IMG/VR virus record: IMGVR_UViG_3300019458_000024
Coordinates: 82,209-146,208 of that record
Reading direction: 5' to 3' (one strand)
Length of the DNA stretch: 64,000 nucleotides
Source: a virus
Shown here: piece after piece, positions 50,354 to 53,758 of the stretch
Numbering within the stretch: the stretch's first letter is position 1
Layout of the letters: the number at the start of each line of letters is the position of its first letter
Notes under the pieces: model-generated
Seen by the model: only the letters and a program-made list of their open reading frames with translations
Database searches by the model: none
What the model was told of the DNA's origin: nothing
Made by a program: the position numbers and the translations under genes

Positions 50354-51952
50354 ATGGCAACGCCGAATAAAAAGAAAGTCTCCAAGACCGAAACTACGAA
50401 GCATTTGAATTGGATGGGAGGTGCTTCATACTTCTCTAGTAATCCAGTTCAATCCCTTAGATTGATTGCCTCTAGTTGTTTTTTTGGAGAGCCTCAATAT
50501 TATCATAAAGATTCATCTGTAGTAGGTTCGCGCCTTACAGAGCGACAATTGACAAGTTTGCGTGAGAGGCTTAATGCACTGGACCCCCAAGAGTGGAGAA
50601 GTAAGTCTCCTCAAGAATGTATGATTAACGCTATTGATGATGCGTTAAATCATAGTGTTGAGCAAACACTGCAGGAGGCTGTTCGTCTTCGTCAAGAAGA
50701 CAATATTCGCACCACACCCCAAGTTATCCTTGTACGTGCTGCCCACCACAAAAATGCAAAAGGTACGGGACTAGTTGGAAAATACGGTAAGGATATTGTG
50801 ATTCGTACTGACGAACCTTCCGTTGGATTGGCCTATCATATTGAAACATATGGAAAAGATGCGCCCATTCCCAACAGCTTGAAGAAGGTGTGGGCACGCT
50901 ATTTGGAAAAGAGGTCTGAAAAGGACCTCGCTAAATACAAGATGGATACTCGTGGTGTGAAGACTGTTGATGTGGTCAACCTAGTTCATCCCAAGAGAAC
51001 GCCGGCTATACACAAGCTTGTTAGAGGTGAACTTAAACTTGAGGCTAGTACTTGGGAATCTTTGATTTCCTCAAACGGTTCTAATTGTAATACTTGGACG
51101 CAAGCTGTTGACATTATGGGTCATATGGCACTTTTGCGCAATGTTAGGAATTTACTAGACAATAAAGTCGAGCAAAGATTGTTTTTGTCTAAACTTGTAG
51201 ACGGTGCAAAGACAGGTAAGCAACTTCCGTTTCGATACTATTCCGCATTTAGAGCTATTCCCGATGCGCCCGGCACGGTCAAAGATGCTATTGAACAGTG
51301 TATGGAAATCACTATGGAAAATGTTCCTAACTTTTCCGGACGTGTAATGTCCCTATGCGATAATAGCGGCTCCGCTCAGGGAACTACTACTTCTTCTATG
51401 GGAACTATGAAAGTTTCTACTATAGCTAATCTCACTGGTTGCATTGTCGGTGCTAAGGCAGACGAGGGTTATGTAGGAGTGTTTGGTGATCGTCTAGATG
51501 TTATGAGCATTCGCAAAAAGTCTTCTATTTTTGACAATTTGGAAAAGGCAGAAACACTTGCTGAGCGCGTAGGTCAAGAAACTGAAAATGGTATTTGGTT
51601 ATTCTGGGATAAGGCTATTCGTGAGAAAGAGCATTGGGATCATGTGTTTGTTTTTTCCGACCTGCAGGCTGGACACGGTGGCCTATACGGTATAAACGCA
51701 CAGTCTTACAAAGACTACGCGTGGGATAATGGAAGACACATTGATGTTTCTAAACTCATCAATGCCTATAGGTCTAAAGTCAACCCACTTGTTAACGTGT
51801 ATTTGGTACAAGTTGCGGGCTATAAAGATACTATTCTTCCTGAGTTCTACGATAGAACTTTCATTCTCAGTGGATGGGGTGAGGGTGTACTGAAGTTCGC
51901 GGGTCAAATGACCAGTGTTATGAACCAAGTTTCACAGAAAAAAGCTGTTTGA
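50354..51952 (+). CDS. Ro60/TROVE-domain RNA-binding protein with C-terminal vWA
   Basis: NWMGGASY, LIASSCFFGEPQYY, IRTTPQV, D..NL.HP, MALLRN, QLPFRYYSAF, CDNSGS, FSDLQ. Confidence 0.9.
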   Translation: MATPNKKKVSKTETTKHLNWMGGASYFSSNPVQSLRLIASSCFFGEPQYYHKDSSVVGSRLTERQLTSLRERLNALDPQEWRSKSPQECMINAIDDALNHSVEQTLQEAVRLRQEDNIRTTPQVILVRAAHHKNAKGTGLVGKYGKDIVIRTDEPSVGLAYHIETYGKDAPIPNSLKKVWARYLEKRSEKDLAKYKMDTRGVKTVDVVNLVHPKRTPAIHKLVRGELKLEASTWESLISSNGSNCNTWTQAVDIMGHMALLRNVRNLLDNKVEQRLFLSKLVDGAKTGKQLPFRYYSAFRAIPDAPGTVKDAIEQCMEITMENVPNFSGRVMSLCDNSGSAQGTTTSSMGTMKVSTIANLTGCIVGAKADEGYVGVFGDRLDVMSIRKKSSIFDNLEKAETLAERVGQETENGIWLFWDKAIREKEHWDHVFVFSDLQAGHGGLYGINAQSYKDYAWDNGRHIDVSKLINAYRSKVNPLVNVYLVQVAGYKDTILPEFYDRTFILSGWGEGVLKFAGQMTSVMNQVSQKKAV

Positions 51953-52700: not shown

Positions 52701-53087
52701 TTGATGAAAAGGATTGGGGATCTTAGACCTGATATGCGGTTAAAGAAAAACAGTAGTAATTACCACGCGTCTAGCCTAAAAGTTAAGGATGCGAGAAATG
52801 ACAAATCTTTTGACGGAGCTACTGGAGGCGCAAAAAAGAAAAAGAATACCAAAAAATGGTGTTTAGGCATTGAAGGTAGGCACCACGTACCTATATGGAC
52901 AGAAGCTGTTAAATTACGCGGGTGTAGCGGTATATTAAGAACAAGACCACCTATTATGCAAGTTTCTTGTGAGAATTGTGATAAGGTTTTTGAAACAGAT
53001 TTCGGATTTTGGGGTCGTCCCAAACTCGGCAGAGATGTACTGTTGGAAAAATGGCGAAAGAAACTAGGAATCGATAAAGATAAGTGA
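52701..53087 (+). CDS. basic hypothetical protein (KKKNTKKWCLG..GRHH...CENC)
   Basis: ORF track; ATG 52734 is an alternative start. Confidence 0.7.
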   Translation: MMKRIGDLRPDMRLKKNSSNYHASSLKVKDARNDKSFDGATGGAKKKKNTKKWCLGIEGRHHVPIWTEAVKLRGCSGILRTRPPIMQVSCENCDKVFETDFGFWGRPKLGRDVLLEKWRKKLGIDKDK

Positions 53088-53091
53088 AAAT

Positions 53092-53758
53092 ATGTCTATC
53101 ATTGTAGAAGTAAGAGCCGGCGAAGGTGGCACAGATGCTAAACTACTGGTAAAAGACCAGTTTGTGATTTACTCGAAGATGGGAGCCCGGAGGGGTCTTT
53201 GAGGTTGAATTACTAGATGACAGACCAGGGTTGCTTATCTTCAAAGTGACTGGTAAAACAGCCGCTGAAGCGTTTAAAAATGAACCAGGCGGTCATAGAG
53301 TTCAAAGAATTCCACCCACTGAACGGAGTGGAAGGGTGCATACATCAACAATAACTGTATGCGTCTTACCTGAACCCACAGAAACTCAAATTAAACTAGA
53401 TGATCAAGATCTAGAGTGGCAGTTTTGTAGGGGCTCAGGAGCAGGTGGTCAAAATCGTAACAAACGGTCAACTGCCGTACAGCTAACCTATAAACCTACC
53501 GGCTTAATGGTGCGTTGTGAGTCTGAGCGGGCTCAGGATGCTAATAGGCGCGGAGCTTTGTCTATTCTTAGGGCAAAGCTTTGGGAGGCTAAAAACAGCG
53601 CTAACGCTGCTACAAGGGCGTTTGACCGCAAGTCTCAAATAGGGTCAGGACAACGTGCTGATAAGATTAGAACTATAAGATACCAGGATGGAGTGGTTAC
53701 GGACCATAGATTGAACAAACGTTGGAATCTTAAGGATTATTTGCGTGGGAATTTCTAA
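53092..53758 (+). CDS. class-I peptide chain release factor, RF1-type, lacking domain 1; expressed via +1 frameshift at 53197-53203 (221 aa)
   Basis: Frame 0 MSIIVEVRAGEGGTDA...RRGL-TGA joins +1 frame EVELLDDRPG...EPGGHRVQRIPPTERSGRVHTS...GAGGQNRNK...VTDHR. Confidence 0.9.
53189..53203 (+). promoter_or_regulatory. prfB-type programmed +1 frameshift cassette GGAGG-GGT-CTT-TGA-G
   Basis: Internal SD 53189-93, 3-nt spacer, in-frame CTT 53197-99, TGA 53200-02. Confidence 0.85.

Follow-up and report, generated by a model that had tools for sequence, protein, structure and literature searches.

The stretch of DNA analysed here (the window; 64,000 nucleotides) is part of an IMG/VR virus record of 162,637 bp with an estimated completeness of 94% and a GC content of 42%. 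Standard-code ORFs extend over 87% of this phage genome, most of the genes lie on a single strand, and the 185 ORFs end in TAA (n = 93), TGA (n = 54), or TAG (n = 38). No tRNA genes were found in the phage genome. A strong Shine-Dalgarno (SD) sequence is present on 35% of the phage genes compared to a background of 15%, and this enrichment indicates that the ribosomes of the host probably use SD pairing. The gene under study, which codes for a release factor (RF), is flanked by structural genes for a tail fibre-like protein, virion proteins, and a tail sheath, and the virus is therefore regarded as a contractile-tailed phage. Its tail sheath shares at most 27% identity with that of any GenBank phage, the closest cultured relatives are very distant, and a megablast search of the RF region against GenBank phages yielded no match. 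Located 1.1 kb upstream of the RF gene and inside the block of virion genes is a gene for a TROVE/Ro60-like RNA-binding protein of 532 amino acids (50354–51952; Pfam TROVE, phrog_850). TROVE/Ro60-like genes in bacteria often accompany RtcB operons. The gene is no conserved partner of the RF gene, which has quite different neighbours in a related locus (L089).

The RF gene is split over two reading frames, and all of its features described below are on the forward strand. Its start codon (ATG at 53092) lies 4 nt past the TGA of an upstream ORF of 128 amino acids (52701–53087), in which a Pfam search detected no RF homology. As this ATG has no SD sequence of its own (53085–53094), the arrangement suggests that the RF gene is translationally coupled to the upstream ORF. 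The zero frame (ORF1; 53092–53199) consists of 36 sense codons that specify the initial strand and helix of RF domain 2, including the motif VEVRAGEGG (positions 101–134 of the Pfam profile PCRF). It ends with CGG AGG GGT CTT TGA G, a sequence composed of an internal SD-like GGAGG built from two arginine codons (53189–53193), a 3-nt spacer (GGT; 53194–53196), the leucine codon CTT as P-site slip codon (Leu36; 53197–53199), from which the tRNA could re-pair to UUU after a +1 move, and the zero-frame UGA that serves as gate codon (53200–53202). The base following the UGA is a G (53203), whereas the canonical cassette of the bacterial RF2 gene prfB has a C, which provides a weak termination context. 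The +1 frame (ORF2; 53201–53758) contains 185 codons followed by TAA (53756–53758). It codes for the remainder of domain 2, domain 3 with the GGQ motif of peptidyl-tRNA hydrolysis (53444–53452), and domain 4, and it matches PCRF positions 154–194 and the whole RF-1 domain (Pfam; E = 1.6e-29 for RF-1). Since ORF1 covers the preceding part of the same PCRF profile, a single domain is divided between the two frames. The tripeptide PPT, which represents the RF1-type PxT stop codon “anticodon”, is encoded at 53312–53320 inside ..HRVQRIPPTERSGRVHTS.., and the residues G118, G119, and Q120 of the GGQ motif are invariant in an alignment of homologues.

In the upstream direction the +1 frame is shut by a TGA (53165–53167), which sets the 5′ limit of the possible shift region, so that a shift must fall within 11 codons (53168–53202). 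The sequence GGAGG-N3-CTTTGA occurs once on both strands of the 64-kb window, compared to 0.06 occurrences expected from shuffled sequences, and this sole copy is situated in the 11-codon frame overlap. The first start codon within ORF2 is a TTG at 53231, and initiation there would cost part of domain 2; in the zero frame, further stop codons are met past the UGA. The public gene call for the locus is a fragment of 170 amino acids that comprises only a truncated ORF2 (P0003). The first-pass annotation had described an ATG at 53092, 36 codons, a GGAGG placed 3 nt before CTT-TGA, and a +1 frame continuing into an RF core with GGQ, and all of these elements are confirmed in the sequence. It had further assigned the product to the RF1 type rather than to RF2 and had stated that domain 1 is missing, and both assignments are borne out by the comparisons that follow.

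ORF2 alone scored 208.6 bits against the NCBIfam model of bacterial RF1 (prfA; NF001859 / TIGR00019). In comparison to the two RF1 models (208 and 203 bits), the scores obtained with the models of RF2 (121 bits), PrfH (55 bits), and ArfB (50 bits) were low, and sequence comparisons with proteins of known structure in the PDB gave the same ranking (up to 150 bits for RF1, 85 for RF2, and 43 for PrfH). Besides the PPT motif, the stop codon-reading residues of RF1 are retained: the alignment columns of P74 and E77 are invariant, and Q71, the histidine, and the threonine are kept. The protein has 221 amino acids, compared to approximately 355–365 in bacterial RF1, because domain 1 (ca. 100 residues), which is involved in the interactions with the L11 stalk and RF3, is absent. 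It begins at PCRF profile position 101, four residues ahead of the first strand of domain 2, and just 0–60 residues precede the domain 2 motif in all 88 viral loci examined. As the score of 208.6 bits is below the equivalog cut-off of 400 and the defining domain is missing, the protein is not a prfA equivalog; judged from its sequence, it is RF1-like in the decoding and catalytic parts. An identity as PrfH (54.9 bits against a cut-off of 166.65, and 43 bits for PrfH compared to 150 bits for RF1 in the PDB search) or as ArfB (50.4 bits against a cut-off of 100) was rejected. A role in ribosome rescue, which had been raised as a possibility in the first-pass annotation, found no support in these scores, and the complete retention of the RF1 residues that read stop codons points to ordinary stop codon-dependent release by this “mini-RF1”. 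In work with truncated RFs of E. coli, codon-specific release in vitro reportedly did not require domain 1, in contrast to the interaction with RF3. A small RF3-independent terminator would fit this behaviour, which is a lead for the function of the phage protein. The stop codon tripeptide varies within the family and includes, in addition to PPT, many PPN, PPS (P0005), SPT (P0027, P0057, and P0113), and PRT. P0068 and P0112 are also listed among the tripeptide variants, and two database proteins have no decoding loop altogether (..HRWQEKSG..). These variants hint at an altered or lost codon specificity in some family members.

The split was recovered in an independent Logan assembly of the probable source, a sequencing run of a cave metagenome. 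The respective contig has a length of 162,736 bp and a word depth of approximately 209x, and its comparison to the window over positions 52900–53500 revealed 0 differences and 0 gaps. When ORF1 and ORF2 are fused by a single +1 step at the UGA, the resulting product of 221 amino acids (P0123) can be aligned across the junction to 13 continuous homologues with no gap, and Leu36 shows a conservation of at least 90% in this alignment. The AlphaFold2 model of the fusion, for which the same alignment was used, reached a mean pLDDT of 82.8 and a pTM of 0.79, with a pLDDT of approximately 94 around the junction, which is located between a helix (residues 14–33) and a strand (residues 37–44). In Foldseek searches with this model, RF1 structures were the best matches, among them T. 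thermophilus RF1 with 41–42% identity and free RF1 (1RQ0) with a TM score of 0.80.

A profile scan of IMG/VR retrieved 235 relatives, 80 of which were fetched, and further relatives were obtained from a metagenome scan, a genome scan, one Logan contig, and the unannotated huge phage LR745208.1 in GenBank; counts that draw on the metagenome and genome scans are lower bounds. At least 29 loci, including the window, carry the +1 shift at one and the same position, which follows the start of the motif xE(I/V)RAAEGG at a distance of exactly 32 codons. The other loci with this shift (at least 28) share 45–65% identity and originate from IMG/VR, JGI/ENA metagenomes, two contigs of metagenome-assembled genomes (MAGs), the Logan contig, and LR745208.1. 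The P-site codon is CTT in 28 of the 29 loci and CCT in one, a metagenome contig (L100, Ga0315284_10358639) that reads GGGGG-CGT-CCT-TGA-C. An exact GGAGG-N3 was found in 14/29 loci, an SD core of at least four bases in 21/29, and no recognizable SD in the remaining 8/29. The first-pass annotation had proposed a search for SD-3nt-CTT-TGA at the same codon in homologues, and the cassette indeed is conserved among them, with the stop codon being variable (16 TGA, 12 TAG, and 1 TAA, including the TGA of the window). The base after the gate stop is C in 25 loci, G in three, and T in one. C and T at this position are synonymous in the +1 frame (GAC/GAT, AGC/AGT), and the bias for C therefore reflects selection on the mRNA.

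Selection at the nucleotide level is also apparent from the codons that form the cassette. All 14 shifted loci that encode Arg-Arg before the site use CGG AGG, whereas the four continuous homologues that also encode Arg-Arg do so by CGG CGT, CGC CGC, AGG CGA, and CGT CGC, and have TTA, CTC, CTG, or a Val codon, but never CTT, at the position of the leucine. As the same residues are specified by other codons in the continuous homologues, the SD and CTT are selected as nucleotide sequences, and on this comparison both elements are maintained only where a shift is needed. A search of a collection of 5.8 billion proteins detected 3,725 short RF proteins at E ≤ 1e-10. Among the top matches, 101 proteins could be classified by the residues at the junction, where a spelling of xF(D/E), xFS, or xF(N/K) indicates a read-in through CTT followed by TGA (n = 56), TAG (n = 30), or TAA (n = 2), respectively. 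This +1 read-in signature was present in 88 of the 101 proteins, and the TAG gate was verified on DNA in 12 loci. The other 13 proteins are continuous (approximately 13% of these close homologues), which implies that the gate is dispensable. One shifted mini-RF1 gene is located on a megabase-sized metagenome contig (L092, Ga0316204_10000005; 1.17 Mb), and the matches listed from the scan of the genome collection included two short MAG contigs assigned to the Sandaracinaceae (L170) and a proteobacterium. According to these occurrences on a megabase contig and on contigs of Myxococcota and Proteobacteria MAGs, the family may also reside in prophages or bacterial chromosomes.

Both the continuous ORFs of some close homologues and the public gene calls, which show a truncated ORF2 only, would be expected if the split were an artefact or a sign of decay, caused by a 1-nt assembly error, pseudogene formation, or the existence of two separate polypeptides. 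This explanation is extremely improbable. An assembly error in an otherwise continuous gene, a doubt raised in the first-pass annotation, disagrees with the identity of two assemblies at approximately 209x and with the split at the same codon in at least 28 relatives. These 28 loci are independent and diverged, and both halves of the gene are intact in them. Furthermore, codon-level selection for the SD and CTT is found exclusively in the split genes, and a separate second polypeptide would have to be produced from an ORF2 that offers no start codon before the TTG at 53231.

The most plausible interpretation, to which we assign a probability of about 80%, is that a phage gene for a 221-residue, RF1-type class-I RF without domain 1 contains a prfB-type programmed +1 frameshift. 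For the slip itself, its stimulation by the SD, and the competition with RF2, the established mechanism of prfB serves as the model, and they would operate as follows. Ribosomes would start at the ATG (53092), read 36 codons, and then pause, the P site holding tRNA-Leu on CUU and the A site holding UGA, while the GGAGG located three bases upstream of CUU would pair with the anti-SD of the 16S rRNA of the translating ribosome. If RF2 of the host acted first, a peptide of 36 residues would be released. If termination at UGA were slow, the P-site tRNA would re-pair from CUU to UUU, GAG would be read next, and the full factor with domains 2–4, the PPT tripeptide, and GGQ would be made. Since the slip would compete with RF2 at the UGA, the output of mini-RF1 would be coupled inversely to RF2 activity. 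Likeliest among the candidate roles of such a device are a strict limit on the amount of a factor that is potentially toxic and probably unable to use RF3, and/or the provision of extra termination at UAA and UAG when termination by the host is limiting. Reading of the UGA as a sense codon was rejected for the window phage: a genome-wide use of genetic code 4 is contradicted by the 54 of 185 ORFs that end in TGA and by the additional stops that in-frame reading past the UGA would meet, and a suppressor tRNA by the absence of tRNA genes from the phage genome. Four observations were counted against a programmed frameshift of the prfB type: the G after the UGA, the use of UAG in relatives at about the same frequency as UGA, the 13 continuous homologues, and the 8 of 29 loci without an SD.

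The variation of the gate codon bears on the reading of the gate as an RF2 sensor. In a quick maximum-likelihood tree (IQ-TREE with SH-aLRT support), the shifted genes and 14 continuous genes formed one clade (SH-aLRT 98), with the continuous genes nested among the shifted ones. The TGA and TAG forms were interspersed in this clade, and well-supported branches force at least 5–6 changes of each label. No relation was found between the identity of the gate stop and either the GC content or the stop codon usage in the flanking regions. Likewise, the gate stop showed no relation to the tripeptide, with PPT-to-PPN ratios of 31:22 in genes gated by TGA and 16:11 in those gated by TAG. UAA, the sole stop codon read by both host factors, is nearly absent as a gate (1/29). 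Because UAG is used about as often as UGA, selection may act on something other than a specific sensing of RF2, and because UGA, UAG, and UAA are interchanged among relatives, an RF2 sensor is a reading that fits the window gene and not a rule for the family. The data fit a gate that needs a stop codon served by one host RF better than a device built specifically to monitor RF2, and UGA seems to be one of the exchangeable states that such a gate, limited by termination, can take. The proposal of the first-pass annotation that the locus cross-wires RF2 sensing to RF1 output thus fits the window gene, in which a UGA gate is combined with an RF1-type factor, but it cannot be extended to the family. 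Its further suggestion that the cassette was acquired independently of prfB agrees with the distribution of the sites: the cassette marks one phage clade and is placed elsewhere in other clades, and its location in domain 2 rather than at the prfB position makes an independent origin the simplest reading.

The same observations bear on two other explanations of the gate. It could be a constitutive attenuator instead of a sensor, with a fixed small fraction of ribosomes passing the stop and a harmful domain-1-less RF being kept at a low level; the stop codon would then only have to be one that is read by a single RF. The free alternation of UGA and UAG in close relatives, the near-absence of UAA, the repeated switches of the stop in the tree, the missing link of stop identity to GC content or tripeptide, and the existence of continuous homologues all are in line with such an attenuator, which nevertheless appears rather doubtful as a full account, because any stop-dependent +1 site competes with the cognate RF and hence responds to its level, whether this response is selected or not. 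The attenuator overlaps with a prfB-type frameshift more than it excludes it. True autoregulation as in prfB would be conceivable if the mini-RF had a broadened specificity and also read UGA, so that any gate stop would feed back on synthesis. Although all three stops are used as a gate across the family, the tripeptide occurs in the variants PPT, PPN, PPS, and SPT, and the loss of domain 1 might alter accuracy, this explanation is unlikely, because the window protein retains the RF1 decoding set (Q, the Thr of PxT, Glu, His, and Thr), scores as RF1 and not as RF2, and belongs to a family in which the PPT:PPN ratio is alike in UGA-gated and UAG-gated genes.

Frameshifting at the codon used in the window is one of several recoding signals in the phage RF family, and just two of 88 viral loci (L015 and L016) were free of any such signal. 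In two other clades, a prfB-like cassette is located ahead of domain 2, within a short 5′ leader ORF of approximately 6–30 codons, for example ATG ACT AGG GGG TGT CTT TGA C in L014, and one locus (L005) has a leader cassette with CTT TAG. Tandem SD-N3-CTT-stop cassettes are present in the leaders of L002 (2834–2882; CTT TAA, then CTT TGA) and L003 (2837–2879; CTT TGA twice), where two +1 shifts would accordingly be needed. A divergent relative (L007, 388–393) contains AAAGGTG-TAT-CTT-TGA-G in domain 2, eight codons upstream of the site in the window, which apparently represents another independent placement. A further clade without a shift (SH-aLRT 100; 67 fetched loci including L017, L020–L051, and L053–L088) has an in-frame TGA, always as GGN TGA, at the gate position of the window, where bacterial RF1 has a tryptophan (..RKRWKTE.. 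in L172). The base after this in-frame TGA is A in 41 of 57 distinct contexts. Genetic code 4 was rejected for this clade as well, since TGA is the stop codon of 46 of the 145 flanking ORFs (≥120 codons) and since the next stop follows at a similar distance after TGA (median of 7 codons) as after TAA or TAG (median of 10 codons). The simplest reading of the sequence pattern is a gene-specific readthrough of UGA by tRNA-Trp, which again would compete with RF2. In the AT-rich genome of a 634-kb uncultured phage (L251, GenBank LR745206.1), two in-frame stops are found in domain 2 of the mini-RF homologue (positions ~540–590), which may indicate an alternative code or more readthrough. For the family as a whole (3,725 proteins at the above threshold and 235 IMG/VR loci), we lean slightly towards the view that synthesis of mini-RF1 is gated by the termination efficiency of the host through several convergent-looking recoding devices, namely the +1 shift with UGA or UAG at the position of the RF1 tryptophan, single or tandem prfB-like leader cassettes, and the in-frame UGA at this tryptophan.

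To our knowledge, prfB has for decades been the single textbook case of an RF gene under +1 frameshift control. The phage cassette resembles the bacterial one (SD-N3-CUU-UGA-C) in the CUU slip codon, the zero-frame stop in the A site, the SD-like element located 3 nt upstream, and, in most relatives, the C after the stop; in both cases the gene codes for a class-I RF or, alternatively, yields a short ORF1 peptide. It differs in that the phage gene is of the RF1 type and lacks domain 1, and in that the site is found at codons 36–37 of 221 in domain 2, at the tryptophan position of bacterial RF1, whereas the prfB site is at codon ~26 in domain 1. Since UGA is not a stop codon that an RF1-type factor should read, the loop in the window phage would not be self-closing, unlike that of prfB. 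The relatives with UAG also have no equivalent among prfB genes: in a survey from 2025 that covered more than 12,000 bacterial genomes, none of the 8,164 prfB motifs contained UAG, and no programmed frameshift was detected in prfA (PMC12421855). According to a review of recoding from 2016, a UAG-containing counterpart of prfB in an RF1 gene was unknown, and the only case cited was an eRF1-type gene of giant amoeba viruses (PMC5009743). This gene of Mimivirus and Megavirus requires both a frameshift and readthrough (PMC3521657; noted in PMC5009743). It is thus also a viral termination factor recoded at stop codons, and both types of recoding are represented in the phage family as well, but it is of the eukaryotic type, occurs in amoeba viruses, uses different signals, and belongs to an unrelated protein family.

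Phage-encoded RF1-type factors have been described from the TGA-recoded (code 4) “Jade” gut phages, in which the RF1 gene is part of a code-change module together with a suppressor tRNA and TrpRS and is written in the standard code, with no frameshift being reported (bioRxiv 10.1101/2021.08.26.457843; PMC10746230). The window phage, in contrast, lacks tRNA genes, follows the standard code, and has an RF gene that is itself gated. PrfH (RF-H) is a domain-1-less RF homologue that is paired with RtcB (PMC1586002). The window protein shares with it the absence of domain 1 and the retention of the GGQ domain, and the TROVE/Ro60-like gene in the neighbourhood is a further point of similarity, but it keeps the PxT decoding loop of RF1 and scores far below the cut-off of the PrfH model (55 versus 167 bits). 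In the full-text literature, no published description of a frameshifted or UGA-gated phage RF1 was found. The locus represents a novel form of a known kind of recoding, the +1 frameshift, with both the gene family and the position being new, and the wider pattern of stop codon-gated phage release factors appears to be undescribed so far.

The phage family supplies both cases that were missing, the UAG gate and the frameshift in an RF1-type gene, and adds an RF1-type gene gated by UGA, all at a new position of the protein. Gene callers truncate or miss such gated RF genes. The natural variants with UGA, UAG, UAA, or no gate, with or without an SD, and with single or tandem cassettes can be used for testing how the kinetics of termination set the efficiency of frameshifting. 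If synthesis of mini-RF1 is indeed gated by host termination, the UAG variant would provide an RF1-type equivalent of prfB autoregulation for the first time, and the UGA variant in the window would connect the two factors in a circuit, with the activity of RF2 governing how much of an RF1-type factor is available during infection. These findings raise the question of why many large phages bring along a domain-1-less RF1 and why its dose would have to be tied to termination in the host.
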